A stretch of 64,000 nucleotides of DNA from a bacterium (lineage in GTDB: Bacteria; Patescibacteriota; Dojkabacteria; SC72; WJKH01): NCBI GenBank assembly GCA_029547225.1, contig JAKPPS010000042.1, forward strand, positions 4,459-68,458, read 5' to 3'. How positions within the stretch are numbered: position 1 is the stretch's first letter; each line of letters begins with the position of its first letter. The position numbers and the translations under genes are program-made. Positions 2,040-54,927 of this stretch are shown piece after piece. Below the pieces are notes generated by a model. The model was given only the letters and a program-made list of their open reading frames with translations, made no database searches and had not been told where the DNA came from.

Positions 2040-2098
2040 TACTTTTTTCCCAGCTTTGTTAGAACAAAAATTAATATATAAACTGGGAAAAAAAGTAT
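2039..2098. repeat. Long inverted repeat (about 15-bp arms, about 29-nt spacer) directly after the stop of ORF 1269..2039
   Basis: ATACTTTTTTCCCAG (2039-2053) is complementary to CTGGGAAAAAAAGTAT (2083-2098), with one extra A. The spacer holds an inner TTTGTT/AACAAA mini-hairpin. Confidence 0.5.
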
Positions 2099-2704
2099 CC
2101 AACCAATACACCCAAAATTTTTAAAACTAGAACTTCTATATATTTTAGCTCCTCTACCTTTTCTATAATACATGTTTACCCTTTATTGATAACTTAAATG
2201 GCGGTTCGAGCAATGCCAACTCCCCTCAAAATGAAAATAGACAGAAAATCCATTTTGAAAAATATTTTTTATGCAAATATCAATACTTTTCAGCATTCCT
2301 GTTGTCATAAATAACTGTAAACCATTGTTATATAAGCATTCCCCCATAAACTAGGTTGGAATAATGAAATTAGTTTTGACAGAGAACAATTTTTGATTAA
2401 AATCAGTAGTCCAGTTGAAAGATAGCCTTGGTAAACGTATACTTGTGAATGGATACTTAGTGAAATGGTTCTTGAGTTTGTCCAAGACCCCCAACCAGTT
2501 TTTCACATTTTTAAGACCACGTTAAAGCCTTGAATTAATAAGTTATTTCAATTTCGAATCGGTTCGGAGTCCTAATTGCTAGGTTAGTGTTCATATACGA
2601 TTCCACCTGTGTTAATGGTATTTTCATAAGTTCGAATCCAAGTTACTATGCAACCTGTACAGAGTATATGGTTGACTGTATATTGCATCGGTTCGAGCCG
2701 TAGA
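2050..2704 (+). repeat. Modular intergenic element, copy 1 (long form, most diverged)
   Basis: The core block is CCAGTTGAAAGATAGCC...GTCCAAGACCCCCAACCA at 2411-2497. A roughly 190-nt 3' module is shared with copy 2. The element ends in TATGGTTGACTGTATA...GGTTCGAGCCGTAG at about 2668-2701. Confidence 0.7.
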
Positions 2705-2989
2705 TTACCGACACTTTTTAACTTGTGCTTTGGTTCGAGCTCGTTTTATGTCTAATTCATAAGCATTTCTTCTTTCTTGCTCTTTTGCTTGTAATGAAAA
2801 TTCCTCAAACCAAACTTCATATTTATCGCCATATTTTTCTTTTTTGCGTTTGTAGAAGTTTTGAATGACTGTTCCAAAATTAGTAAGGCGTTCAGCAATA
2901 AGTTCAACTTCTTCGTTGGGAAGAGGGCGATTGTACCGTTTATCGAAAATCATACGAATTAGATCGAGGTACTCGTGTGAAAAGTTCAT
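2705..2989 (-). CDS. Small conserved basic protein of unknown function (paralog of 6655..6933)
   Basis: Most residues are shared by eye with ORF 6655..6933 (MNFSHEYLDLIRMIFDKRYNR...KRKKEKYGDKYEVWFEEF...RARTK). I place the start at ATG 2989, which overlaps the upstream stop as ATGA. The ORF track starts at 3013. Confidence 0.6.
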   Translation of the reverse strand: MNFSHEYLDLIRMIFDKRYNRPLPNEEVELIAERLTNFGTVIQNFYKRKKEKYGDKYEVWFEEFSLQAKEQERRNAYELDIKRARTKAQVKKCR

Positions 2990-3936
2990 ATCCGGATTTC
3001 TTTTTCTAACCAATCAAATGTAGTGCCATTGTGTCTATCCCACCACATTTTTTCCCAAAGATAATGAACCGCTAAATGCTTGTATTTGCCAAATTTATTA
3101 ATATATTTCATCAACTTCTCAACAGGTAGTAATTCTTTATTAAAAAATAATCTTGAATATAACTTATGTTCCCATGGTGAGATATGTTCAAATACTTCCC
3201 AATGATGAAAAACATCAAATAGTAAATACCAAACTGTAGCAGGTCCTACACCATATAACGCTAGAAGAGTTTTTTTCTGAGTGATTAAATCCTTTCCCCT
3301 CAGTTCAAACTCATTTATTAGACCTTGTGAAAATTGCTGATCAATTTTAATTATGGATTTTGCTCTATATCCAATCTTTAGATCTCTCAGTTCTTGCTCG
3401 TCAATTTTAGAAAATCTACCAATATCCCACAGACAGAGTAATTTCTTTCCATCAAACTCTAACTCAGTTCCATAGTTTGATAATAAATTTCGAAACATTT
3501 GAATTGATCGACGGACAGAAGCATTTTGCAAAATTATTCCAATTATTAGATATTCATATAGTGAGCTTGGGTGACCAGGTCTCATTCCAATTAGTTCATT
3601 TATTGCAATATCGAGGAGTTTGTCTTTTATTGCTAATTTATAGAATTCATCTAAATCTAAATTTAAGTTGTATCTATAAATTATTTCATTTTTTAAACTT
3701 TCAATAAATTCAAAAGTGGGTTCTTGAATTGAAAAGACTGTAACTTTAATCCCAGGTGAAGCATCTTCATACTTGATACCAAGCATTTGACCTTCCCAGT
3801 TCATTGTCTGCCACCTTACACCTTTTTCATAAATATGATCATCGGTTGTGAAATGGTCAGGTTTAAAAAATGTTGCATCAAAATTAAATGGGGAAATTGG
3901 TCTTATAGAAATTGTTTTTGATTTATTCAACTGCAT
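2986..3936 (-). CDS. HhH-GPD superfamily DNA glycosylase (AlkA/Ogg-like)
   Basis: 316-aa ORF. The helix-hairpin-helix motif LLALYGVGPATVWYLL is followed by a conserved acidic region. Confidence 0.65.
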   Translation of the reverse strand: MQLNKSKTISIRPISPFNFDATFFKPDHFTTDDHIYEKGVRWQTMNWEGQMLGIKYEDASPGIKVTVFSIQEPTFEFIESLKNEIIYRYNLNLDLDEFYKLAIKDKLLDIAINELIGMRPGHPSSLYEYLIIGIILQNASVRRSIQMFRNLLSNYGTELEFDGKKLLCLWDIGRFSKIDEQELRDLKIGYRAKSIIKIDQQFSQGLINEFELRGKDLITQKKTLLALYGVGPATVWYLLFDVFHHWEVFEHISPWEHKLYSRLFFNKELLPVEKLMKYINKFGKYKHLAVHYLWEKMWWDRHNGTTFDWLEKEIRI

Positions 3937-3937
3937 A

Positions 3938-4369
3938 TTAATGATTCCCTAAATGATCAGGCCATGGATATGGCATTAGTTCAGATATCGGAATTTGTTT
4001 AATCTCATTATTTTCTTCAATAATTACTACTGTATCAATTTTGCTTCTAATTGAACTTTCCCAAATCAACTGTTTGCAATTATGACAGTTCGGTCCAGTA
4101 ATCGCTATAATCTCTGTTTCACCATCATTTGCAGACTTGGCTAGTGCAACAGCTTCACTGTGCATTGTTAAGTTATGAGTATCTGAAACATAACTTGCAC
4201 CGTAATAGATTTTGCCATTTTTTGTGAGTAGAGCTACTGCAAAGCCCTTGTTTTTTTCAGGATATGTAAATTTCATAGCTTTTTGGGCTTCTCTCAACAA
4301 CTCCTTACATTCTTCAATGTCTAATAGGTAAACATCAAATCCATTTGTGTTTTTTCCTTTAATTTTCAT
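3938..4369 (-). CDS. Cytidine deaminase-fold zinc deaminase (cytidine or blasticidin-S deaminase-like)
   Basis: 143-aa ORF with HSEAVAL (H/C-x-E) and PNCHNCKQL (PCxxC) zinc-binding motifs. Confidence 0.7.
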   Translation of the reverse strand: MKIKGKNTNGFDVYLLDIEECKELLREAQKAMKFTYPEKNKGFAVALLTKNGKIYYGASYVSDTHNLTMHSEAVALAKSANDGETEIIAITGPNCHNCKQLIWESSIRSKIDTVVIIEENNEIKQIPISELMPYPWPDHLGNH

Positions 4370-4374
4370 ATTAC

Positions 4375-4764
4375 TTATTCCTCAAATTTTTCAGATAATT
4401 CCCAGATGTAGCCTTCAATATCTCTAAAATAAGCAACCTTTTGCCCCCATGGTGTAGTTTTAGGATCTTGAATGAATTCAACGCCTTTCCCTTTAAGCTC
4501 TTTAGTGGCAATTTTTACGTCATCTACTTCAACTGCGAATATGTTTGAAGGCTTATCATCTGATGAGAAGTTGTTGAAACCGCACATGCCTTCAAGTGTT
4601 TCTTTTGTTAATAGGGCTATTACAAGTTCTCCCAGTTTAACTTCTGCAAACTTGTTTTCTTTGTCTATTGTTTTAACGGAAAGACCAAGTACATTAGTAT
4701 AAAAATCAAACGCTTTGTCAAAATCGTTTATTCTTATTCCTACTGCCATATATTTATTAAACAT
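4375..4764 (-). CDS. VOC (glyoxalase/bleomycin-resistance/dioxygenase) family protein
   Basis: 129-aa ORF. Its size and sequence pattern (GIRINDFDKAFDFYTNVLG...GYIWEL) are typical of the VOC fold. Confidence 0.65.
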   Translation of the reverse strand: MFNKYMAVGIRINDFDKAFDFYTNVLGLSVKTIDKENKFAEVKLGELVIALLTKETLEGMCGFNNFSSDDKPSNIFAVEVDDVKIATKELKGKGVEFIQDPKTTPWGQKVAYFRDIEGYIWELSEKFEE

Positions 4765-4782
4765 TTTATTGAAAATAATAAT

Positions 4783-5382
4783 TTAAGATAAAGGAATTTG
4801 TGATTGTGGTAATTTTACTGAATTACCATAATCCTTTACTGTTTTAACAAAAGAATCGTCTTTATTGCTCCCATTAAAGATCTTATTCCGAAAAACTATG
4901 TAAACTTCATCTTTAAAAGATAAATCTGCCCACCAATTTGGAAGTTTCAAATATTTGCTTAGCAAAGTCACAACTTCTTCAATCTTTGCTCTTGTAACCT
5001 CAACTTGATGCAATGTCCATGTAGGTTCTCCTGCATTAGTACTTGGATTATCATCTTGTTCAATTTTTGTTTCGGTAATTTTACATAGTTTTAGCAATTC
5101 TTTGTTTTCTAAGCTTTCCTCAATAATACAACCTTTGAAAATTTGTCCCCAGACTTCACCTTCTAATAACCATTTCTCGGCGGTTTGTTTTCTGTCGTTT
5201 TCAGATATTTCAGGGTGATCTGATTGAATATAATCTAACATACCCTTTAGAACTTCGTCATAGCACTTGAGATTTCCTTTTTTATCAACACAATAAGGAC
5301 AAAAACCATCTTTAATTATCTCTTCAGGTTTGTAGTCACTTAAAGGTCCACTACATGACCTACATAGTTTTGGCTTGTCCAT
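4783..5382 (-). CDS. Hypothetical protein with N-terminal CxxC...CxxC zinc ribbon
   Basis: 199-aa ORF starting MDKPKLCRSCSGPL...FCPYCVD. I recognise no family for the remainder. Confidence 0.4.
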   Translation of the reverse strand: MDKPKLCRSCSGPLSDYKPEEIIKDGFCPYCVDKKGNLKCYDEVLKGMLDYIQSDHPEISENDRKQTAEKWLLEGEVWGQIFKGCIIEESLENKELLKLCKITETKIEQDDNPSTNAGEPTWTLHQVEVTRAKIEEVVTLLSKYLKLPNWWADLSFKDEVYIVFRNKIFNGSNKDDSFVKTVKDYGNSVKLPQSQIPLS

Positions 5383-5383
5383 A

Positions 5384-5953
5384 TTATTTTAAAATTAATT
5401 TAAATAAATTATTAATCATCTTTTCAGGTTCAATTATTTCACCGTTGGCGAAATGAAGAATACCTGTTATATCGTTAGCAATTACAAACGAAGTTGCAAT
5501 TGATTTTGCATCAACCGATTTAAACTCTCCTTGCACAATTCCTTCATTAATGATTTCTGCAACAAAGGTTATATAGTTACTAATGTATTCTGTTGCAACA
5601 TGTGTTCGTAAATCATTATGGGAGCTTAACAAAAGTGCATATGTCATAAGGAATGAATCTCTATCTTGTTTAAGCATTAGACTATTTGCTTTGAATAACC
5701 TTATTAACTTTTCTTTTGGAGAGGATATATTTTTGAGGGCTTCCTTTATTTGGTTTATCCTTGTTTCTGCAGAAAATCTAATAGCGGAAATAAGTAAGTC
5801 ATCTTTGTTTTTGAAATGAAAATAAATACTTCCTTTTGCGACATCTGCTTCTTTAATAATGTCATCAACACTTGTTTTATCTAATCCTTTCTGAGCGATG
5901 ACTTTCGCTGTAGCTTCAAGAATGCTTTGTTTTGAAACTTTTTGGTATTTCAT
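5384..5953 (-). CDS. TetR/AcrR family transcriptional regulator
   Basis: 189-aa ORF. The N-terminal HTH region ILEATAKVIAQKGLDKTSVDDIIKEADVAKGSIYFHFKNKDDL is typical of TetR_N. Confidence 0.85.
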   Translation of the reverse strand: MKYQKVSKQSILEATAKVIAQKGLDKTSVDDIIKEADVAKGSIYFHFKNKDDLLISAIRFSAETRINQIKEALKNISSPKEKLIRLFKANSLMLKQDRDSFLMTYALLLSSHNDLRTHVATEYISNYITFVAEIINEGIVQGEFKSVDAKSIATSFVIANDITGILHFANGEIIEPEKMINNLFKLILK

Positions 5954-5964
5954 ATCTTTTATTA

Positions 5965-6006
5965 GACTAATTAGTCAATTATATACAGGTCTGACCGTTT
6001 AGTCAA
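5965..6006 (-). promoter_or_regulatory. Sigma70-type promoter with a palindromic candidate TetR operator, for the minus-strand operon 5953..2705
   Basis: On the minus strand, TTGACT (6006-6001), a 17-nt spacer and TATAAT (5983-5978). The perfect 12-nt palindrome GACTAATTAGTC (5965-5976) overlaps the expected transcription start. Confidence 0.65.
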
Positions 6007-6023
6007 ATCTATAATTGTTAGTT

Positions 6024-6647
6024 CCTCATTTTGTTCAGAACAAGGGAGTTGTACTTGGAGTACTTTTCAAAAAATATTTTTATGTTTTCACGCAAAGATC
6101 TTGTATCTATGGGTATTTTCATTGTATAGCTGACTATAAATAGCGTAATTATATTGATATTACGCACCTTTTGTACTTGTTAAGAAATTAGTTCTAATTG
6201 AGAATGAATTCAACTCAAAATACTCAACCCAGTTGAAAGAAAGCTGTGGAATACGTATACTTGAGAAGGGATTGAGATGGAAAAAGTTCCTGAGTTTGTC
6301 CAACTCTCTCAATTTGAGCCTGTGCAATGCACAGTTGCAAATTGATAAACTAAAATGAGAAACATTTCATGCGAAGCATGAGTGGGGAGCAAGGTCCTGT
6401 CCACTACAAAGTAGTGGCAGGAAATCCAGGTCCGGCAACCAGTTTTTCATATTTTTAATACCACGTTAAAGCCTTGATTTAATGGGCTATTTCAATTTCA
6501 AATCGGTTCGGAGTCCTAATTGCTAGGTTTATGTCGATATTCGATTTGGTTTGTCTAATAGGTACTTTTCAAAGTTCGAATCCATATCACTATGCAACTT
6601 GTACAGAGTATATGGTTGACTGTATATCGTAGTGGTTCGAGCCGTAG
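6024..6647 (+). repeat. Modular intergenic element, copy 2 (long form; hairpin insert at the variable site)
   Basis: The 5' block and core (about 6025-6310) are nearly identical to copy 3. Insert 6311-6435 holds three perfect hairpins. The 3' module and end, TATGGTTGACTGTATA..GGTTCGAGCCGTAG, are shared with copy 1. Confidence 0.8.
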
Positions 6648-6654
6648 AAAACCG

Positions 6655-6933
6655 TTACTTTTTTACTTTTGATTTGGTTCGAGCGCGTTTTATGCCTAAT
6701 TCGTAGGCATTTCGACTCTCCTCCTCTTTAGTTTTTTCTGAAAATTCCTCAAACCAGACTTCATATTTATCTCCGTATTTTTCTTTTTTGCGTTTGTAGA
6801 AATTTTGAATTACTATTCCGAAGTTTGTTAGGCGTTGGGCGAAAAGTTCCACTTCTTCATTGGTAAGAGATCGATTGTACCGTTTTTCAAAAATTTTACG
6901 GATCAAACCTATATATTCATCTGAAAATTTCAT
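6655..6933 (-). CDS. Small conserved basic protein of unknown function (paralog of 2705..2989)
   Basis: 92-aa ORF, MKFSDEYIGLIRKIFEKRYNR...KRKKEKYGDKYEVWFEEF...RARTK. It starts 13 nt after the alaS stop. Confidence 0.6.
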   Translation of the reverse strand: MKFSDEYIGLIRKIFEKRYNRSLTNEEVELFAQRLTNFGIVIQNFYKRKKEKYGDKYEVWFEEFSEKTKEEESRNAYELGIKRARTKSKVKK

Positions 6934-6946
6934 ATGAATAAGATTT

Positions 6947-8851
6947 TTAAACTAGTGAAGCTTTAATACGCAATATACCACTTCCGATTTTTTCTTGGTT
7001 CAAGATCTTGAATCTTTTTCCATCTGAAACAATTTCATTTGTATTCTGAACATGAGGTCCACCACAAAATTCGGCTGATAAGTAGTCTTTCCTAGAAGCA
7101 TCATTAATATTTACGTTTTCTCTAAGTCCAATAACAAATACAGAAACGGTATCAGGATACTTTTGGCCAAACTCATGTTCAGCACCAATTCGTTCAGCTT
7201 CATTTTTTGGTAGATCAAACTTGTCAACGGAAATTCCTTCGTTGATTTTCTCACTTACAGTTAATTCTATCGTTTGTATTTCATCTTGAGTAATTTTTCT
7301 ATCAAGATTAATATCCAGCCTCAGTCTTTCTGGTGTTATGTTACTGCCTTTTTGATGTATCTCGTCACTAATTGTCAGTTGCAAAGTTCTAAGTAATAAA
7401 TGCTGAAGTGTATGGAGTTTCGTAGTTTCTTCAGAACTATCTGATAATCCACCTTTGAATTTTCCAATTGATGAGTTTCTAGATAGTTCTTGATGTTTTC
7501 GCATACACTCATTAAAGTCGTCTATAATTGTTAGCCTATCCTTTCCATTGACATCCAATGCTTCTAATGAAAGTTCACAAGGAAACCCATAAGTTTCGAA
7601 AATGTAAAACAAGTCCCTACCAGTGATTACTTCTTTTTCTTCACTAAGTTCTTCAATTTTCCTTAGTCCTTTATCAAGAGTTTTATTAAACTTCTCAATT
7701 TCGGAACTCAAAATCTCGCAAATAGACTCTAGTTGACTCTCAAAATGAGTATATTGCAATTTATATGTCTCGAAGAAACTTGTGCCTAATTCGATAATAA
7801 AAGACTTTTCTATACCCAAGACTTTGCCAGATCGCATTACTCTTCGAATTAACCGTCTAAGAATATATCCTCTATCTTTATTACTTGGAATTACGCCATC
7901 TGTTAGTAGGAAAATAATTCCCCTCATATGGTCGAGAATTATACGCAGGTTTTTTATTTCCTCTTTGGTACTGTCTTGAAAAGATTTTCCCGAGAGTTCC
8001 TCTAATAAAGTCCTTTGTGTATCGAAAAGTTCAGTATCATAAACCGAATACTTCATATCTAACGAACCGTCACTTTCCTTAAATTGACTTATGAGTGTAA
8101 TTCTTTCAAATCCTCCACCAAAGTCAATATTCTTCTGAACAAGTGGAACATACGTTTTTTCTTTTGTTTTGTTGTACCCCATAAACACATTATTGGAGAT
8201 TTCAATAAACATATTTGAAGTATCCCAAGGGACAAAACGTCTAAAGTCAGGCTTTTCTTTGCCTCTCCAATAGAATAATTCAGAATCAGGACCACATGGA
8301 CCAGTTTCTCCTGCTGGCCCCCACCAATTTTCTGTTTTCAACAATGGAAAGATTCGAGTATTTTCATTGAAATCTTTGCCGTCCCAAACTTCCGGTTCTA
8401 TCCCGACCGAACGATATAGTTCTTTCCACTTTTCAATTGCAATTCTATCTAGTTCTACATCCGTGTTTCCGACAAATACTGTCGAATAAAGTCTTTTAGG
8501 ATCAAACTTTAGTTTGTTTACAAAATAGTCGAAAGTAATTTCAAGTGACAGTTCTTTGAAGTAATCTCCGAGTGACCAATAACCTAACATTTCAAACAAT
8601 GTATGATGAATCGTGTCTCCAACTTCTTCAATGTCATCAGTTCTGAAGCAACGTTGAACATTTACAAGTCTTTGACCTAATGGGTGCAATTCACCAAGAA
8701 GATATACAACTAAAGGATGCATACCTGCAGTAGTAAACAATACACTTGGGTCATTAACAGGAATTAAAGAAGAATTGGGGATTTCTTTGTGATTGTATTT
8801 TTGAACTAGAAGATTGATAAAATCTTCTTTTATTGATTTTGATAAATTCAT
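6947..8851 (-). CDS. alaS: Alanine--tRNA ligase, short form lacking the C-terminal C-Ala domain
   Basis: The N-terminus (FTTAGMHPL...RCFRTDDIEEVGD..HHTLFEMLGYWSLGDYFK) matches the AlaRS class II core. The editing-domain motif CGGPHV lies near the C-terminus. The ORF is only 634 aa. Confidence 0.9.
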   Translation of the reverse strand: MNLSKSIKEDFINLLVQKYNHKEIPNSSLIPVNDPSVLFTTAGMHPLVVYLLGELHPLGQRLVNVQRCFRTDDIEEVGDTIHHTLFEMLGYWSLGDYFKELSLEITFDYFVNKLKFDPKRLYSTVFVGNTDVELDRIAIEKWKELYRSVGIEPEVWDGKDFNENTRIFPLLKTENWWGPAGETGPCGPDSELFYWRGKEKPDFRRFVPWDTSNMFIEISNNVFMGYNKTKEKTYVPLVQKNIDFGGGFERITLISQFKESDGSLDMKYSVYDTELFDTQRTLLEELSGKSFQDSTKEEIKNLRIILDHMRGIIFLLTDGVIPSNKDRGYILRRLIRRVMRSGKVLGIEKSFIIELGTSFFETYKLQYTHFESQLESICEILSSEIEKFNKTLDKGLRKIEELSEEKEVITGRDLFYIFETYGFPCELSLEALDVNGKDRLTIIDDFNECMRKHQELSRNSSIGKFKGGLSDSSEETTKLHTLQHLLLRTLQLTISDEIHQKGSNITPERLRLDINLDRKITQDEIQTIELTVSEKINEGISVDKFDLPKNEAERIGAEHEFGQKYPDTVSVFVIGLRENVNINDASRKDYLSAEFCGGPHVQNTNEIVSDGKRFKILNQEKIGSGILRIKASLV

Positions 8852-9055
8852 AAATATTGCCTAATAAGTTATATCTACAAGGACGTTTCCGTGGTACCAC
8901 CTTGCTTTGAGTTACTATCACTAATAACTCCTTATTAGGTTTCTATCAAAACCTTTTTGTTTACAGTTTCTATCTGGATCTACTTAGTCACATTTCTGTT
9001 TGTTGTAGTCTGCTCGGGAGTGGCTGGCCTTTCGACCTCTTTCCTTCAATGCATT
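8852..9055 (-). promoter_or_regulatory. T-box riboswitch leader upstream of alaS
   Basis: The minus-strand RNA contains GCAAGG-UGGUACC-ACG-GAAA-CGU-CCUUGU (8905-8877). This gives helix A1 CAAGG/CCUUG, the 7-nt bulge UGGUACC and helix A2 ACG/CGU with a GAAA loop. A Stem-III-like hairpin GAGUUA..UAACUC (8930-8909) sits just upstream. Confidence 0.75.
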
Positions 9056-9061
9056 TATATA

Positions 9062-9090
9062 ATTATAGTATTGATTGCATCTAAAGTCAA
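9062..9090 (-). promoter_or_regulatory. Sigma70-type promoter for the T-box leader and alaS
   Basis: On the minus strand, TTGACT (9090-9085), exactly 17 nt, then TATAAT (9067-9062). Confidence 0.7.
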
Positions 9091-9099
9091 AAAACGTTT

Positions 9100-9431
9100 C
9101 TCATTTTGTTCAGAATAAGGGAGTTGTACTTGGAGTACTTTTCCAAAAATATTTTTATGTTTTCACGCAAAGATCTTGTATCTATGGGTATTTTCATTGT
9201 ATAGCTGACTATAAATAGCGTAATTATATTGATATTACGCACCTTTTGTACTCGTTAAAAAATTAGTTCGAATTGAGAATGAATTCAACTCAAAGCACTC
9301 AACCCAGTTGAAAGAAAGCTGTGGAATACGTATACTTAAGAAAGGGTTGAGGTGGAAAAAGTTAACCATTTTGTCCAACTCCCCCAACCACAACTACCGG
9401 TTGACACTATATAGTAGTGGTTCGAGCCGTC
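9100..9431 (+). repeat. Modular intergenic element, copy 3 (minimal form, about 330 nt, variable site empty)
   Basis: The 5' block and core are nearly identical to copy 2. The core runs straight through CTCCCCCAACCA (about 9378-9390) into GGTTGACACTATATAGTAGTGGTTCGAGCCGT. Confidence 0.8.
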
Positions 9432-9480
9432 ATAAATAGGAACTTTGATCGCAAGAAAGTTCAAAAATTTAATAAAAAAT

Positions 9481-10425
9481 ATGGATAATTCAAAATTGAT
9501 TTACATAACAGCGGATGGTTTATATTCAGATATTGACATATATGCTTGCTCAATTGCCTATGCCGAATTGCTTCGTCTTAGAGGTAAAAATGCTATTGCA
9601 GTTGTAAATACGACTTTTACTGAATCTGTCCCTCAGTTTTTATTAGATCTCGACGTTGAATATTTAAATCAGTCAAATATCGACTGGAACAAGGCAGATG
9701 CACTGATCATATTAGATCGTTCTGATAGTGAAGGTCTACAGAAAAATATCAATATATCTAAAGTAATTGAACTATATGATCATCACTTTGGATATGAAGA
9801 ATATTGGTCGAAACTTTTAGGTAGCAGAGCGCATATAGAAAAAGTTGGCTCATGTGCAACACTAATATGGGAGCAGATAAAGCTACACAATCAAGAAAAA
9901 AAGATTTCAAAGAATAGTCTTATATTGTTGTATTTAGCTATTATCTCCAATACACTAAACTTTAAGTCAGGTGTTACAACAGATAGAGACATTCAGGCTT
10001 CCAAAGAAATTAAAATAATCGCGAATATACCAAACGAATTCTCGAGTGATTACTTTAAAAAAGTTTCAACAAGTATAATTAATGCACCTTATGAAGCTAT
10101 GCTAAAGGATGTAAAATTTGTAGTAATTAATGGTAGTCAGCAAATCGCAATTGGTCAATTAGAAATATGGGATGCTAAAGAGATTCAAAATGCCATAATT
10201 CTCAAATTGGAAACATTTCTGCCTAATTTTGAGAATATTCCGTGGTTTGTTACTATAGCCTCTATAAAAGACGGTAAAACAATTCTAATTTCCAAATCGA
10301 CTGAAATGAAGATTATGTTAAATAAAGCTTTAAGTATTAAGTGGGAAGAGGATATATCTTATATATGTTCATCATTGTTACTACGGAAAGAGATTATTAA
10401 AGCATTACAAAAGGTGCATTTTTAA
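9481..10425 (+). CDS. DHH-family protein resembling family II inorganic pyrophosphatase (PpaC-like), N-terminal metal motif diverged
   Basis: A DHH motif (ELYDHHFG) and overall collinearity with PpaC (VGSCATLIW..., AIISNTLNFKS). I chose the start at ATG 9481; the ORF track starts at TTG 9445. Confidence 0.6.
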   Translation: MDNSKLIYITADGLYSDIDIYACSIAYAELLRLRGKNAIAVVNTTFTESVPQFLLDLDVEYLNQSNIDWNKADALIILDRSDSEGLQKNINISKVIELYDHHFGYEEYWSKLLGSRAHIEKVGSCATLIWEQIKLHNQEKKISKNSLILLYLAIISNTLNFKSGVTTDRDIQASKEIKIIANIPNEFSSDYFKKVSTSIINAPYEAMLKDVKFVVINGSQQIAIGQLEIWDAKEIQNAIILKLETFLPNFENIPWFVTIASIKDGKTILISKSTEMKIMLNKALSIKWEEDISYICSSLLLRKEIIKALQKVHF

Positions 10426-10430
10426 TTGTT

Positions 10431-11046
10431 CATGAGTTTGTTCAGAACTTTCTAGTAAATTTTGAAAACAAAGTTGGATTATCACGCAAAACATATTGAT
10501 AATCCATTGTTTTCAATATACTAGTTTTGATTAAATTGTAAAAGATCCTGATATTGCTAGCTTTTCACCACTTCAAGAAACAACTGCTTGTTTGCAAATA
10601 AACGTTTATCGAAATCCTCACTCCAATTGAAAGATAATGCTGGAATGCGTATACTTAAGAAAGGGTTGAGATGGAAAAAGTTAACCATTTTGTTCAGCTC
10701 CCCCAATGGTTCGACAGGCTCACCATTGCAAGGATATAATAGATTTATGCGGACGGTATATATTCTTCTTTGCGATGACAAAACATATTATGTCGGTATA
10801 ACGACTGATTTAAGTAATCGCCTTTTTCAGCATCGAAATGGCGATTCTTTTTATACTAAACGATTTAAACAATTAGATTTAGTGTATCGAGAGGAATTAG
10901 CAAATCAAATAGAAGCTGAAAAAAGAGAGAGGCAGATAAAGAAATGGAGTAGAGCAAAGAATTGTCGAAGGGAGTCCATGTCCCGCAACCAAGGTGTCCT
11001 GTACAAACACTATGGTTGACCATATATAACAATGGTTCGAGCCGTA
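10431..11046 (+). mobile_element. Modular intergenic element, copy 4, carrying a GIY-YIG ORF at the variable site
   Basis: 5' block TTTGTTCAGAA..CACGCAAAACATATTGATAA. Core at 10622-10705. Hairpin AATGGT-TCGACAGGCTC-ACCATT, then the ORF. 3' end CGCAACCA..TATGGTTGACCATATA..GGTTCGAGCCGTA. Confidence 0.75.
10747..11019 (+). CDS. GIY-YIG (URI domain) nuclease family protein, small stand-alone type
   Basis: MRTVYILLCDDKTYYVGITTDLSNRLFQHRNG...EKRERQIKKWSRAKN carries the GIY/YVG...R...E motifs. The start is taken at internal ATG 10747, because the upstream part of ORF 10588.. is the element core. The last 19 or so codons read through element 3' sequence. Confidence 0.75.
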   Translation: MRTVYILLCDDKTYYVGITTDLSNRLFQHRNGDSFYTKRFKQLDLVYREELANQIEAEKRERQIKKWSRAKNCRRESMSRNQGVLYKHYG

Positions 11047-11128
11047 TGAAATCAACTTTTTCGCATTTCTAAAATCGGTTCGAGTATATTCGATAGAAAA
11101 AAATCATTATTTCTGATAGTATTTAAGC

Positions 11129-11752
11129 ATGATAAAAAAATTAAACTTTTCAAACGAGTTCTTTGAGGTTTCTTATATTAATGATCAGATAATTGAATCT
11201 ATTGATAATTTTACAATTGTTGTAAATTTATCTAAAAATCCAATTAAAGTTGATTTTGTTAGCGAAATTACCCAGGATAAATCATTTATGCTTCATAAAT
11301 GTAACAAACCGTTAAAAGTGAATGAGTGCCTGCTTGTCAAATACAATTTTGATCCATCAATTGTGAATCTAGATCTACAGAAATTCTGCACTTCCAATTG
11401 GAACAATAACAAAATAAGATATCCAGAGGATCCTTCAAAATGGAATTATGCTATTTTACGCTCTCCTATAGATAAATTAGGCAAGTTTGAATTTAACTGT
11501 TGGTATTTACCAAAAAATACAGCAAGTAGTATTCATAATGAACACTCATTTACAGAAGTACACACACAAATTTACGGTTTAGGTATTATGAATAAATTCT
11601 CAGATAATAATAAGGAGTCGCTTTATCAAAGAATGTATATGGCTCCAGGTTTTACCCACGATTACTTCTTCAATAACGAGATTAAATATCCATGGCACCA
11701 ATATGAAGCAGTAAGCGAATGTATTTGGATGGCTATTTGCAAATACAAATAG
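11129..11752 (+). CDS. Hypothetical protein
   Basis: 207-aa ORF bracketed by element copies 4 and 5. I recognise no family. The His-rich stretch SIHNEHSFTEVHTQ could bind metal (speculative). Confidence 0.4.
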   Translation: MIKKLNFSNEFFEVSYINDQIIESIDNFTIVVNLSKNPIKVDFVSEITQDKSFMLHKCNKPLKVNECLLVKYNFDPSIVNLDLQKFCTSNWNNNKIRYPEDPSKWNYAILRSPIDKLGKFEFNCWYLPKNTASSIHNEHSFTEVHTQIYGLGIMNKFSDNNKESLYQRMYMAPGFTHDYFFNNEIKYPWHQYEAVSECIWMAICKYK

Positions 11753-11765
11753 AAGTAAATTGTTC

Positions 11766-12450
11766 ATCATTTTGTTCAGAATGGGTGACCTGAACATGAA
11801 GGTACTTTTCAAAAATAATCCTGTACGTTCACGCAAAACATATTGATAAACCAACATTTCGGCAATGTAACATTTAGCATAAATCGTAAAAGAGCTTGAT
11901 ATTCCTACGTTTTTACGATTTCAAGAAACAATTGCTTATTAGTAAATAATCGTTTGTAAAAATACTCAACCCAGTTGAAAGAAAGCTGTGGAATACGTAT
12001 ACTTGAGAAGGGATTGAGATGGAAAAAGTTCCTGAGTTTGTCCAACTCCCCCAATGGTTCGACAGGCTCACCATTGTATTTGTTTTTAAAATTGATAACT
12101 TTATATATTCTTCTTTGCGATAAAACTTACTATTATGTTGGAATAACATCCGATTTAGAAAATCGAGTTTTTCAACATAGTAATAAATTATCATTTTATA
12201 CAAAAAGATTTAATAACATTGAAGTAGTTTATACTGAAAAGTATTTAAATCTTAAAGATGCTGAAAAGAGAGAAATGCAAATAAAGAAATGGAGTAAAGC
12301 AAAGAAGAAGTCTTTGATAGAAGAGAATATATCTGAATTGGTGAGCTTATCGAAGCATAGTTAAGCCAAAGAGAGAGCCTTATGAGTTTGCATCGAGCAA
12401 ATCCTGAGTTTCTCTAAGGATCGTCGAGGTGAGTCCAGTTTGGACAATTT
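11766..12450 (+). mobile_element. Modular intergenic element, copy 5, carrying a GIY-YIG ORF; the canonical 3' block is missing
   Basis: 5' block TTTGTTCAGAA..CACGCAAAACATATTGATAA. Core at 11970-12052. The same AATGGTTCGACAGGCTCACCATT hairpin precedes the ORF. The post-ORF GTCGAGGTGAGTCCAGTTTGGAC resembles copy 4, but there is no GGTTGAC..GGTTCGAGCCGTA end. Confidence 0.65.
12092..12364 (+). CDS. GIY-YIG (URI domain) nuclease family protein, small stand-alone type
   Basis: LYILLCDKTYYYVGITSDLENRVFQHSN...EKREMQIKKWSKAKK. The start is uncertain: I chose TTG 12092, while the ORF track starts at 11975 inside the element core. Confidence 0.65.
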   Translation: MITLYILLCDKTYYYVGITSDLENRVFQHSNKLSFYTKRFNNIEVVYTEKYLNLKDAEKREMQIKKWSKAKKKSLIEENISELVSLSKHS

Positions 12451-12538
12451 TATTATTTTATAAATCTTTCCCAGTTCAGATATAATCCGATTTACTAATA
12501 TATAAGAAAAGTGATTATTAATAATAATAAAAATTTTT

Positions 12539-13075
12539 ATGATACTAAAAATTGATAAAAATCAACTTTCTCAAATAGATATCAAGTGTTTAGAAATTGC
12601 AATAAAAGAAGCACAAAAAAGCTTTTATTTGGGATCATATCCCGTAGGATCAGTATTATTACTCAACGAAACTGAGATATTTTCTGCTGGCAACACAGCT
12701 CAAATAAAAAATAATTTATTTTTCCATGCAGAGAACTCATTGATTGAAAAATATGGATCAAAAATGTATGAATGTTTCAAAAACAAACAATCTATAAAAT
12801 TATATTCAACTTTAGAGCCTTGTCTTATGTGTTTAGGTGCTGCTATTATGAATAAAGTTAACGAAATTTTTTTTGTCCAACACGATCCGCACGCAGGTGC
12901 ATGTAATATTGATATCAAAGCTCTTGGCATTAGATATTCAGAAAATATGCCTATAATCAAACATGTTGCATATTCCGATATCCCTTATAAATTATTGATT
13001 GAATTTTTCAATTCTGAGATATCAAAGGGTAATCCTTGGGGTAAAAAGATGTTGGAGATTTACGAGAAGAGTTAA
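12539..13075 (+). CDS. CMP/dCMP-type zinc deaminase (TadA/guanine-deaminase-like)
   Basis: 178-aa ORF with HAENSLIE (HAE) and EPCLMCLGA (PCxxC) motifs. Confidence 0.7.
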   Translation: MILKIDKNQLSQIDIKCLEIAIKEAQKSFYLGSYPVGSVLLLNETEIFSAGNTAQIKNNLFFHAENSLIEKYGSKMYECFKNKQSIKLYSTLEPCLMCLGAAIMNKVNEIFFVQHDPHAGACNIDIKALGIRYSENMPIIKHVAYSDIPYKLLIEFFNSEISKGNPWGKKMLEIYEKS

Positions 13076-25590: not shown

Positions 25591-25964
25591 GGCAAGTATT
25601 CTAGACAGTTGCCCCTCCTTCTAAGTAATTTCTGATTATTTAGGCGGAGGGGAGGAAAGTCCGGACTTCAAGCTGTCTCCAGCAATACGGAGATGATGCC
25701 TGTGAGAGCAGGGTAGGTGTGAGCTTACGGATAAAAGGGCAACAGAAAATTACCGCCTCACGCAAGTGAGGTAAGGGTGAAAAGGTGAGGTAAGAGCTCA
25801 CCGCATCTGCTGTAAAGTAAGATGGCTATGTAACCCCCTTCAGAAGCAAGGTCAAACCGCAGGTATCGGTTGCGATACCGGATATATCGGTAATTTATTA
25901 CTAGGTATTATCCAGATAGATAACTGTCCAAAACAGAATTCGGCTTATTGGATGCTTGCCACTA
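25591..25964 (+). ncRNA. rnpB: RNase P RNA, bacterial type A
   Basis: Universal blocks GAGGAAAGTCCGG, GGTAAGGGTGAAA, GGTAAGAGC, AGCAAGG and ACAGAATTCGGCTTA. P1 pairs GGCAAGTA (25591-) with (T)GCTTGCC (-25960). Confidence 0.95.
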
Positions 25965-37184: not shown

Positions 37185-37250
37185 AAGGGCCTGTTTTCAA
37201 AAAATGCATATTTATAGTATCGTGCAAGCTGTACTGAAATAACATAATGC

Positions 37251-37302
37251 TTGGGTAGTCATGGATAGCTTTTAACGGAACGCAATTAGGTTGGTGGCAT
37301 AC
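37251..37302 (+). repeat. Box-1 intergenic repeat
   Basis: TGGGTAGTCATGGATAGCTTTTAACGGAACGCAATTAGGTTGGTGGCATACC. Confidence 0.7.
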
Positions 37303-37437
37303 CTAAAAAATATATACTCTATGATGTTAAACTAATTATTTGCTAAAAAATCTACATAATAATAATATAGAGTAAAGTGAGTTCGTTGATCGATCAGATC
37401 TGTTCAAGCAGTTTAAATTTAGTTTCGTTATAGAAAA

Positions 37438-52711: not shown

Positions 52712-52785
52712 TTTTTTATACGTTATCTTTTAATAGTATTGAGTATATTTATATCGTGTTAGTGATTATATTACAAAGTATTGAT

Positions 52786-52837
52786 TGGGTAGTCATGGAT
52801 AAATATTAAAGGAACGCAAGTTGGTTGGTGGCATACC
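52786..52837 (+). repeat. Box-1 intergenic repeat, between the umuD-like and umuC-like genes
   Basis: TGGGTAGTCATGGATAAATATTAAAGGAACGCAAGTTGGTTGGTGGCATACC. Confidence 0.7.
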
Positions 52838-52845
52838 ATAAACGA

Positions 52846-54855: not shown

Positions 54856-54927
54856 CTCCGCGACCAGGATTCGAACCTGGAACCAACCGGTTAACAGCCG
54901 GTCGCTCTACCATTGAGCTATCGCGGA
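54856..54927 (-). tRNA. tRNA-Asn (anticodon GTT)
   Basis: The full cloverleaf was read by hand: acceptor TCCGCGA/TCGCGGA, D stem GCTC/GAGC, anticodon stem ACCGG/CCGGT with loop CTGTTAA, T stem CCAGG/CCTGG with loop TTCGAAT. CCA is not encoded. Confidence 0.95.

Follow-up and report, generated by a model that had tools for sequence, protein, structure and literature searches.

The window analyzed here is a 64-kb stretch of a Dojkabacteria genome, and its first part carries five copies of a modular repeat placed between blocks of accessory genes. It forms part of the 48.7-kb contig L015, with window base 1 at L015 position 5619. An earlier note, made from the letters alone, had described five same-strand copies of an unclassified element with a 5′ block (A), a core (B), and a 3′ block (C). 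In the core search, a 30-nt degenerate block B pattern (TTGAAAGANNNNNNTGGNANNCGTATACTT) was run on the window and on 100 shuffles. The pattern matched at 2415, 6233, 9308, 10627, and 11975 (n = 5, all on the + strand) and gave 0 matches in the shuffles, which bears out the five copies. Repeat finding and multiple alignment also agreed with a modular, strand-consistent element located at the boundaries of gene blocks. The near identity of copies 2 and 3 over ~290 nt was measured as 93% across 292 nt, and the DHH gene and the open reading frame (ORF) at 11129–11752 were each found between two copies, as had been noted. Block C (TATGGTTGAC..GGTTCGAGCCGTA) was present in copies 1 to 4, but copy 5, to which it had also been assigned, was without it. 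The start given for copy 1 (~2050) was not retained, because TTTGTTAGAA at ~2055 lies within a hairpin loop; the hairpin is terminator-like and precedes the true module start. This long hairpin (TTTTTTCCCAG...CTGGGAAAAAA, window 2044–2098, + strand) directly follows a 256-aa gene, has the look of a bidirectional terminator, and holds TTTGTTAGAAC in its loop. Several features had been overlooked, namely intact GIY-YIG ORFs in copies 4 and 5, a minus-strand small ORF after copies 1 and 2, a promoter in block B, tRNA-like tails, and a tRNA-Gln gene just beyond the window. The features are listed in Table 1.

Table 1. Features of the repeat array and of related GIY-YIG loci. Positions are those of the window unless a contig is named; A+B, blocks A and B together; D, a further trailer block.
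Feature	Position	Strand	Remarks
A+B spans found with nhmmer	2188–2503, 6012–6316, 9083–9405, 10415–10725, 11749–12073	+	
A+B of copy 1, type III	2188–2494	+	nhmmer 203 bits; homology with L017 ends exactly at 2494
Sigma70-type promoter TTGAAA-17 nt-TATACT, copy 1	2415–2443	+	promoter scan and conservation
Equivalent promoters, copies 2–5	6233–6261, 9308–9336, 10627–10655, 11975–12003	+	
Blocks D (2495–2655) and C (2656–2745) of copy 1	2495–2745	+	same D and C after tRNA-Gln elsewhere
Small ORF (94 aa), antisense, just 3′ of copy 1	2705–2989	−	paralogue at 6655–6933 after copy 2
A+B of copy 2, type I, finishing ...GTCCAACTCTCTCAA	6024–6312	+	nhmmer 286 bits; 89–95% identity to copies of other species
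Gene-less 126-nt insert at the B/D joint of copy 2	6313–6438	+	decayed tRNA-Gln 3′ end ..CCAGGTCCGGCAA
Blocks D and C of copy 2	6439–6690	+	82% identical to 2481–2780
Copy 3, minimal form	9100–9432	+	A+B (9100–9387) fused directly to a short block C (9388–9432)
A+B of copy 4, type II, 275 nt	10431–10706	+	nhmmer profile
Mini GIY-YIG element of copy 4	10707–10988	+	inserted exactly after CAA of block B; left arm TGGTTCGACAGGCTCACCATTG; right arm decayed
GIY-YIG ORF of copy 4	10747–11019	+	PF01541, E 5.6e-15
Block C of copy 4	10989–11090	+	repeat family
A+B of copy 5, type II block A with type I-like block B	11766–12054	+	nhmmer profile
Mini GIY-YIG element of copy 5	12055–12447	+	directly after CAA of block B
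GIY-YIG ORF of copy 5	~12092–12364	+	PF01541, E 6.5e-12; C-terminus ..VSLSKHS encoded by the right repeat
GGTTCGAG boxes	2690, 2732 (copy 1); 6634, 6676 (copy 2); 11034, 11077 (copy 4)	+	
GIY-YIG relative	L034 5883–6620		after tRNA-Gln
GIY-YIG relative	L035 1398–1803		after tRNA-Met
GIY-YIG relative	L037 1080–1940		after tRNA-Gln
GIY-YIG relative	L038 890–1330		after tRNA-Glu
GIY-YIG relative	L036 1–400		after a tRNA 3′ end at the contig start

The A+B modules of L015 fall into three sequence types. Type I comprises copies 2 and 3 together with one copy located upstream of the window, and type II comprises copies 4 and 5. Copy 1 is of type III, a separate type with TTATGCAAA in place of CACGCAAA. 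The identity of block A between types was only ~50%. Modules of types I and III measured 288 nt, and those of type II 275 nt. Copy 1 begins with a tRNA-3′-half-like repeat (GGTTCGAGCAATGCCAACTCCCCTCAA, 2203–2229) and finishes in ...GTCCAAGACCCCCAA. Imperfect direct repeats of 17–27 nt border A+B. No family-wide inverted ends were found for A+B; AAGGGAGTTGTAC/GTCCAACTCCC occurred in part of type I only, and a direct version was present in L004 and L006. The related sequences used for comparison were metagenome assemblies, searched with one pattern per genome-collection or metagenome scan, and stretches of 8–20 kb around the matches were read. Matches to the core pattern were confined to Candidatus Dojkabacteria-type assemblies, comprising genomes of eight GTDB species, some of them under the label Saccharibacteria, along with six JGI metagenome contigs. 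On several contigs, two A+B copies lay 1–2 kb apart. The B/C junction of copy 3 was also present in L009–L011. Among viral contigs, neither the B core nor block C was found, and five matches to the B tail were rejected as chance hits inside phage genes. In L008, both A+B copies (5418–5074 and 4349–3969, − strand) hold extra GC-rich palindromic inserts such as GCCTGCCTGTCGGCAGACAGG and CCATGCCTTCGCTAAAGCTTCGGCAGGCAGG, one of which interrupts the −35 hexamer; the inserts appear to be another small repeat, of a REP-like kind, that invades the modules.

The array is anchored at a tRNA-Gln gene. A tRNA-Gln(CUG) gene was detected by ARAGORN and Rfam at L015 2333–2406, 3.2 kb upstream of the window. 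The order in L015 before the window is gltX, tRNA-Gln(CUG), D, C, small ORF, 591-aa gene, A+B, C, amidohydrolase gene, and the window-start genes, indicating that the array starts at the tRNA-Gln gene and contains at least six A+B copies. A tRNA-Gln gene was located upstream on the same strand, 0.7–3.5 kb away, for all 12 of the A+B copies whose fetched stretch has one. Judged from the sequence, blocks D and C are the native trailer of Dojkabacteria tRNA-Gln genes. In L015, L005, L006, and L009, the tRNA-Gln gene preceded D, C, and the small antisense ORF, and in L017, L013, and L008 it preceded C alone. The window contains eight occurrences of a T-loop-like box (GGTTCGAG), compared with 0.5 expected; every one lies on the + strand within the array. 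The variant GTTCGAATCC was found at 2628–2644. A hidden Markov model (HMM) of the tRNA-Gln 3′ half matched at 10972–10991 (E 5e-4), at 6423–6441 (E 2e-3), and in block D at 2628–2644 (E 0.016), all on the + strand.

The small ORF encodes a basic protein of 92–95 aa with two helices and adjoined tRNA-Gln trailers in every context examined. It was carried by the window and by L005, L006, L009, L011, L015, L023, and L024, and its 29 homologues were all at least 72% identical and located on Dojkabacteria-type contigs. Differences by codon position numbered 259/182/749, indicating a real coding gene under purifying selection. The AlphaFold2 model showed two helices (pLDDT 88). The fold search returned nothing in PDB better than E 0.9, with a histone-fold likeness that was not significant, and the searches of Pfam, PHROGs, and NCBIfam were all empty.

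Block B of each copy contains a sigma70-type promoter sequence. The hexamers and the 17-nt spacer were invariant in 14 distinct family members, with TATACT to TATAAT, toward consensus, as the sole change. The downstream ORF was co-directional in 17 of 23 copies, and three of the six exceptions were the conserved small ORF. Block B is predicted to act as a promoter reading outward into the next gene block. Every copy terminates in ...CAA exactly 80 nt after the −35 hexamer, and homology between copies ends at this ...CAA base in all loci. The distance from the −35 hexamer to the end remained 80 nt across all three types, despite a spacer identity of ~50%. Among the 16 copies matched by the search pattern, 15 had a box T(C/T)A(C/T)GCAAA (TCACGCAAA) located 145 ± 1 nt upstream of the −35 hexamer. 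The exception was L002, which has a 17-nt deletion; a variant box missed by the pattern was present in L004 and L012. Fixed spacing without a conserved fold or reading frame points to a protein–DNA architecture of ~14 helical turns. The 92-aa basic helical protein, or a recombinase encoded elsewhere, might be the binder of A+B. The B tail is similar to the T-arm plus acceptor 3′ strand of tRNA-Gln from Dojkabacteria; local alignment with tRNA-Gln(UUG) returned p < 0.001 with type III, p = 0.002 with copy 3, and p = 0.035 with type I.

High conservation across species and a conserved length could also be expected if A+B were a structured noncoding RNA or folded single-stranded DNA, such as a large RNA gene between operons whose variable peripheral domains host ORFs. 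The earlier note had argued for RNA or single-strand structure from a helix flanking the core (CTCAACCC/GGGTTGAG in copies 2, 3, and 5) and its apparent compensatory change in copy 1. This helix was perfect in copy 3 only, and copies 2 and 5 read GGGATTGAG with a C·A mismatch. In the alignment, 76.5% of the cells were paired versus 72.7% after shuffling, a level reached by 5 of 500 shuffles, but sliding the partner by one column left the covariation nearly unchanged (0.177 versus 0.189), and the supposedly compensatory helix only just exceeded its controls. Compensatory changes were seen in the block C hairpin (ATAGTG/CACTAT, TATGG/CCATA, and ATATGG/CTGTAT) and in the type III 5′ hairpin (CAAAATG/CATTTTG versus AAAAAC/GTTTTT), and some local stems use G–U pairs of the + strand. 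The block A hairpin GCGTAAT/ATTACGC, however, was disrupted without compensation in L004, L007, and L009. When 18 distinct members of the family, taken from the window and related contigs, were folded with RNAalifold, the consensus had an energy of −1.62 kcal/mol with 10 pairs, and a near gap-free alignment of 17 copies gave −1.55 kcal/mol, compared with −3.9 kcal/mol for the reverse complement. The consensus folds of the individual types were weak, and the more diverse types II and III folded at least equally well on the opposite strand. Single-sequence folds only marginally beat shuffles and did so equally on the opposite strand, and the description of the element as hairpin-rich was not borne out by minimum free energy z-scores (−1.9 on the + strand, −2.2 for the reverse complement, and −0.9). 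No copy matched any Rfam 15 model at the gathering score or at E ≤ 10, including group I/II introns, HEARO, ROOL, and GOLLD, and L015 1900–5200 matched tRNA only. In keeping with the earlier note, no Rfam, insertion sequence, or intron family fitted the element. The most conserved stretch consists of the −35 and −10 hexamers at canonical spacing. Given the consensus folds, the slide control, and the uncompensated hairpin, action through RNA or single-strand structure is unsupported. The conserved repeats are DNA modules and not folded RNA, and the structured-RNA explanation is very improbable.

Other readings of the blocks were also tried. Conservation of the core as part of a longer protein did not agree with the 1–13 stops found in every frame of every copy, and no codon periodicity was seen in A+B (differences by phase, 3203/3270/2960). 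A small peptide starting at the ATG/GTG of block B was rejected because a 1-nt indel between types breaks the frame, and a coding block A was rejected for its absence of coding potential. Blocks D and C as a structured RNA were likewise rejected (consensus −14 kcal/mol over 260 nt, with the reverse complement better). Group I introns within tRNA genes are a known feature of Patescibacteria (PMC13011429), and this candidate was dismissed here, with no intron model match and no split tRNA. A tmRNA or tRNA-like RNA formed from the 5′ GGGAGTTG and 3′ CAACTCYC ends was not detected by ARAGORN; the ends can pair in only a subset of type I copies, and in L004 and L006 a direct repeat stands there instead.

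A mini GIY-YIG element of ~300 bp is present in each of copies 4 and 5. The catalytic motifs of the encoded proteins are intact (VYIL..YYVGIT..R..H..E), and PF01541 covers nearly the whole of each protein (~90 aa), so that only the catalytic domain is present. Seg and I-TevI enzymes have a long DNA-binding tail, which the GIY-YIG proteins here lack. The element of copy 4, whose left arm is the same as that of copy 5, closes in a tRNA-Gln(UUG)-like 3′ end (GTCCATGTCCCGCAA), the first of the 3′-half HMM matches given above. The element of copy 5 has 20-bp terminal inverted repeats (ATGGTTCGACAGGCTCACCA at 12054–12073 and an 85% complement at 12339–12358), and its trailing tRNA-Gln(CUG)-like end (GAGTCCAGTTTGGACAA), a likeness seen by eye and missed by the HMM, closes the array. 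Thirteen close GIY-YIG homologues were found in a collection of 5.8 billion proteins, and the contexts of six were fetched. In five of these six, the gene immediately follows either a tRNA 3′ end or the discriminator base of a tRNA gene, and in the sixth (L040) no tRNA was present within its short upstream stretch. A TTCGACAAGCTCA-like left arm was found in four of the five tRNA-adjoining relatives and was absent from the first unit of L037. Inverted arms of ~14–22 bp enclose the elements in L034, L036, and L038, and a degenerate copy of the same tRNA, from T-loop to 3′ end, lies behind the element in L034, L036, L037, and L038. L034 has three tandem left arms behind one tRNA-Gln gene, L037 has two GIY-YIG genes in series, and L001 and L014 contain left arms that lack an ORF. 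These units may be tiny selfish elements that target the ends of tRNA genes. The searchable literature gave no description of the element, of the motif, or of a link between GIY-YIG genes and tRNA ends.

The 17-mer GGTTCGACARGCTCACC of the GIY-YIG arm represents a widespread repeat family and was also found in at least 140 copies in IMG/VR contigs (L041–L160), mostly as one arm of unrelated palindromic repeats (CCGTTCGCCCTGAGCTTGTCGAAGGG / GGTTCGACAAGCTCACCACGAACGG). Adjacency to a tRNA was seen for 0 of 140 copies, and a following GIY-YIG-like ORF for 0 of the 129 copies that had enough flank, indicating that the tRNA link holds for ORF-bearing elements and not for the motif.

The joints could have arisen by transposition, with A+B, D, and the GIY-YIG units all being small mobile elements that insert after the discriminator base of a tRNA or pseudo-tRNA and duplicate the segment from T-loop to 3′ end. 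A+B and D would then be non-autonomous and mobilised in trans by the GIY-YIG nuclease, and the array would be an accretion that trapped cargo. The A+B modules do lie between imperfect direct repeats (GTTCMTSAKTTTGTYCA on the 5′ side and GTTCCTGAGTTTGTCCA on the 3′ side in types I and II; GGTTCGAGCAATGCCAACTCCCCTCAA and GGTTCTTGAGTTTGTCCAAGACCCCCAA in type III), and their identity is 89–95% across diverged genomes. The GIY-YIG units with ~20-bp inverted repeats abut tRNA-Gln, tRNA-Met, and tRNA-Glu genes, the cognate tRNA 3′-end copies behind the elements look target-derived, and the ORF-less left arms fit the same scheme. However, A+B is without inverted repeats of the kind seen in the GIY-YIG units, and for A+B by itself no pair of filled and empty sites was found. 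In copies 4 and 5, the GIY-YIG elements have tRNA-like ends that match real tRNA-Gln rather than the preceding B tail, so these elements did not insert in place with target duplication. In addition, GIY-YIG proteins are not known to serve as transposases. On balance, this origin of the whole array seems unlikely.

The content between the joints varies between strains. Contigs with a 100% identical APH protein split into different haplotypes. In L017 and L019, 1.4 kb with a GNAT gene and a 110-aa ORF stand in place of window 2495–12607, and the break falls at the exact end of block B of copy 1. L017 carries a tRNA-Gln(UUG) gene in the position of the upstream A+B of L015, followed by the same block C and amidohydrolase gene. 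The 3.1-kb unit common to L017 and L015 (C, amidohydrolase, APH, 256-aa gene, and A+B) is 96% identical, starting at the ...CAA/CCAG junction and ending at ...CCCCCAA, compared with only 72–76% identity for the downstream deaminase and glmS of L017. L017 also has two glmS-like sequences (3–1046 and 8645–10455; 71% and 76% identical to the window glmS) flanking the tRNA-Gln(UUG) island. In L024, the first unit of L015 (within tRNA-Gln, D, C, small ORF, 591-aa gene, and A+B) was conserved at 93.4% over 2691 nt up to the CAA of block B, and glmS was 66% identical to that of the window. Units have thus been transferred between diverged genomes with ends at ...CAA. A+B alone was 89–95% identical in L004–L007; gltX of L023 and L015 shared 71%. 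The 591-aa gene that L015 has between the small ORF and A+B is replaced in L009 and L011 by a 262-aa gene and a NUDIX-like gene (by eye).

The cargo genes are of typical accessory kinds; according to Pfam or NCBIfam, they include APH, GNAT, glyoxalase, TetR, deaminases, an Ogg-like glycosylase, a family II pyrophosphatase-like DHH protein, and peptidases. An unusual item is a short alaS gene of 634 aa (window 6947–8851) with a T-box-like leader, both of which lie inside the strain-variable segment and are missing from that position in L017 and L019. The leader (window 8876–9058, − strand) scored 43.5 bits (E 4.5e-7), under the Rfam gathering score of 93.

Outside the array, the only other tRNA in the Dojkabacteria stretches was a tRNA-Asn (window 54856–54927, − strand), 42 kb past the array, and a bacterial RNase P class A RNA was found at window 25593–25962 (+ strand, 181 bits). 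These ordinary housekeeping RNAs confirm the chromosomal context. A 91-nt direct repeat, 75% identical, was present in two unrelated intergenic regions of the + strand (window 37218–37308 and 52752–52842), one before a 244-aa ORF that is SpoU/TrmH-methyltransferase-like by eye and the other between dinB-like and S24-peptidase (umuD/lexA-like) genes; it matched nothing in Rfam at E ≤ 1.

The conservation of the joints bears on the possibility that the blocks are passive relics, left either by successive segmental duplications of the locus with promoter, tRNA-Gln, and trailer or by old integrase-mediated island insertions, and are now functionless, decaying fragments. Partial tRNA repeats beside an island tRNA are the classic scar of integrase elements (10.1101/2020.12.28.424599), and many fragments here are plainly decayed. 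Relics should nevertheless decay and gain indels, but A+B is 89–95% identical where housekeeping genes are 66–71% identical, the spacings of 145 and 80 nt are exact over three divergent types, and the promoter is invariant with an orientation bias of the downstream genes. We regard a purely passive origin as quite improbable.

We consider it probable that the five copies are the joints of a tRNA-Gln-anchored accessory-gene cassette island with boundary and promoter modules, extending from the tRNA-Gln gene to window position 12447. The geometry of A+B, with a promoter and a tRNA-Gln-like end, suggests that the module stands in for “tRNA-Gln promoter plus tRNA-Gln”; behind it comes the trailer known from genuine tRNA-Gln genes (D and/or C, with or without the small antisense ORF). 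A+B would drive transcription into whichever gene block follows, and its tRNA-like end and high conservation would make the module, together with its C/D trailer, a site of block joining and exchange. Exchange might proceed by homologous recombination between modules after DNA uptake, which would largely explain the exchange between strains; genes for competence and pili are widespread among Patescibacteria (PMC12455944). It might also proceed through breaks at the tRNA-like ends made by the resident GIY-YIG nucleases, or through a recombinase encoded elsewhere. New joints at ...CAA would need a more specific activity, such as GIY-YIG breaks or an undetected recombinase. Within the module-and-island explanation, homologous exchange and nuclease- or recombinase-mediated joining appear about equally likely.

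Several observations weigh against the island of promoter modules. Promoter-like hexamers are frequent in this 32% GC genome (39 observed versus 48 expected from shuffles), so that the promoter call rests on conservation and gene orientation rather than on the match itself, and minus-strand genes face copies 1 and 2. The B tail of type I is weakly similar to tRNA-Gln, as its p value indicates, and the tRNA-Gln 3′-half HMM misses the B tails (E 27 for 2480–2497). No integrase, transposase, or other recombinase was found among the 27 window ORFs scanned with Pfam, among the remaining ORFs inspected by eye, or among the called genes of L015–L028, and the earlier statement that transposase, integrase, and reverse transcriptase genes are missing nearby held up. 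The cargo swap between L009 and L015 is bounded by the small-ORF start on one side and the 5′ end of block A on the other, rather than by ...CAA; such end points in conserved flanks fit homologous recombination better than site-specific joining. Finally, repeats of ~300 bp at 90% identity can mis-join metagenome assemblies, though several independent assemblies agree.

The island was further compared with known systems. It resembles the tRNA-anchored islands of Prochlorococcus and the tycheposons (10.1101/2020.12.28.424599) in having a full tRNA gene at one end with co-oriented partial 3′-end copies, tandem accretion of units, cargo that varies between strains, and a streamlined genome. An intact tRNA gene lies at one boundary of the array and direct repeats of its 3′ part lie inside; no element-encoded integrase was found beside an att site in the window and the related loci examined, and no tyrosine or serine recombinase, replication gene, or packaging gene was found in the related loci. 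Unlike those islands, the joints here carry a 288-bp promoter module of fixed spacing, which is not described there, and the units range from 0.1 to a few kb. With integrons, the locus shares small accessory units in the same orientation, a recurring recombination-site-like sequence, a promoter reading into the downstream insert, and strain-variable content. It differs in that no IntI or attI was found in the window and the related loci examined, the repeats have neither the attC palindrome nor the GTTRRRY core (no family-wide hairpin was present on either strand), each joint has its own promoter, and the anchor is a tRNA gene. Both classes are functionally similar to the locus, but membership in both fails because the defining recombinase was not found and, for integrons, because the attC structure is missing as well.

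The mini-elements recall free-standing GIY-YIG homing endonuclease genes such as SegB, a small GIY-YIG gene located between genes and beside tRNA genes in the T-even phage tRNA cluster; SegB reportedly promotes segmental amplification where sequences are repeated (PMC13096335). In contrast to SegB, the proteins here are ~90-aa predicted catalytic domains, and their genes lie within ~20-bp inverted repeats. Correia elements of Neisseria and “mobile promoters” are, like A+B, short noncoding intergenic repeats with functional-looking −35/−10 hexamers facing the neighbouring gene. A+B differs in being without terminal inverted repeats, confined to one island, tied to tRNA, co-oriented, and phased at 145 and 80 nt. 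The rtT region of Escherichia coli tyrT likewise has tandem units after a tRNA gene, each ending in a copy of the tRNA 3′ end, as here; those repeats are short, local, gene-less duplications and, unlike the array, do not bound exchangeable cassettes. The combination of a tRNA-Gln anchor, a phased promoter/pseudo-tRNA module at each joint, mini GIY-YIG units, and no recombinase found appears to be undescribed.

A bolder version of the island explanation would be integron-like gene capture without an integrase, in which the 90-aa GIY-YIG nucleases of the ~300-bp inverted-repeat mini-elements would cut DNA encoding tRNA 3′ ends, the phased 288-bp “promoter plus pseudo-tRNA” modules would act as landing and expression pads, and cassettes would be stacked behind tRNA-Gln and swapped between distant lineages. 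We hold this version to be doubtful. If GIY-YIG mini-elements do cut the ends of tRNA genes, this would give a role to the very common small GIY-YIG proteins and would provide a recombinase-free way of building cassettes. For annotation, the locus is a warning that conserved intergenic repeats with local stems need not be RNAs.

Candidate-phyla-radiation bacteria have tiny genomes with few recognisable mobile elements, and accessory genes move between their lineages (PMC12455944). The locus offers one concrete architecture for such movement, with blocks that are 93–96% identical where glmS is 66–76% identical and with whole blocks, including the short alaS gene and its T-box-like leader, present or absent between otherwise near-identical strains.

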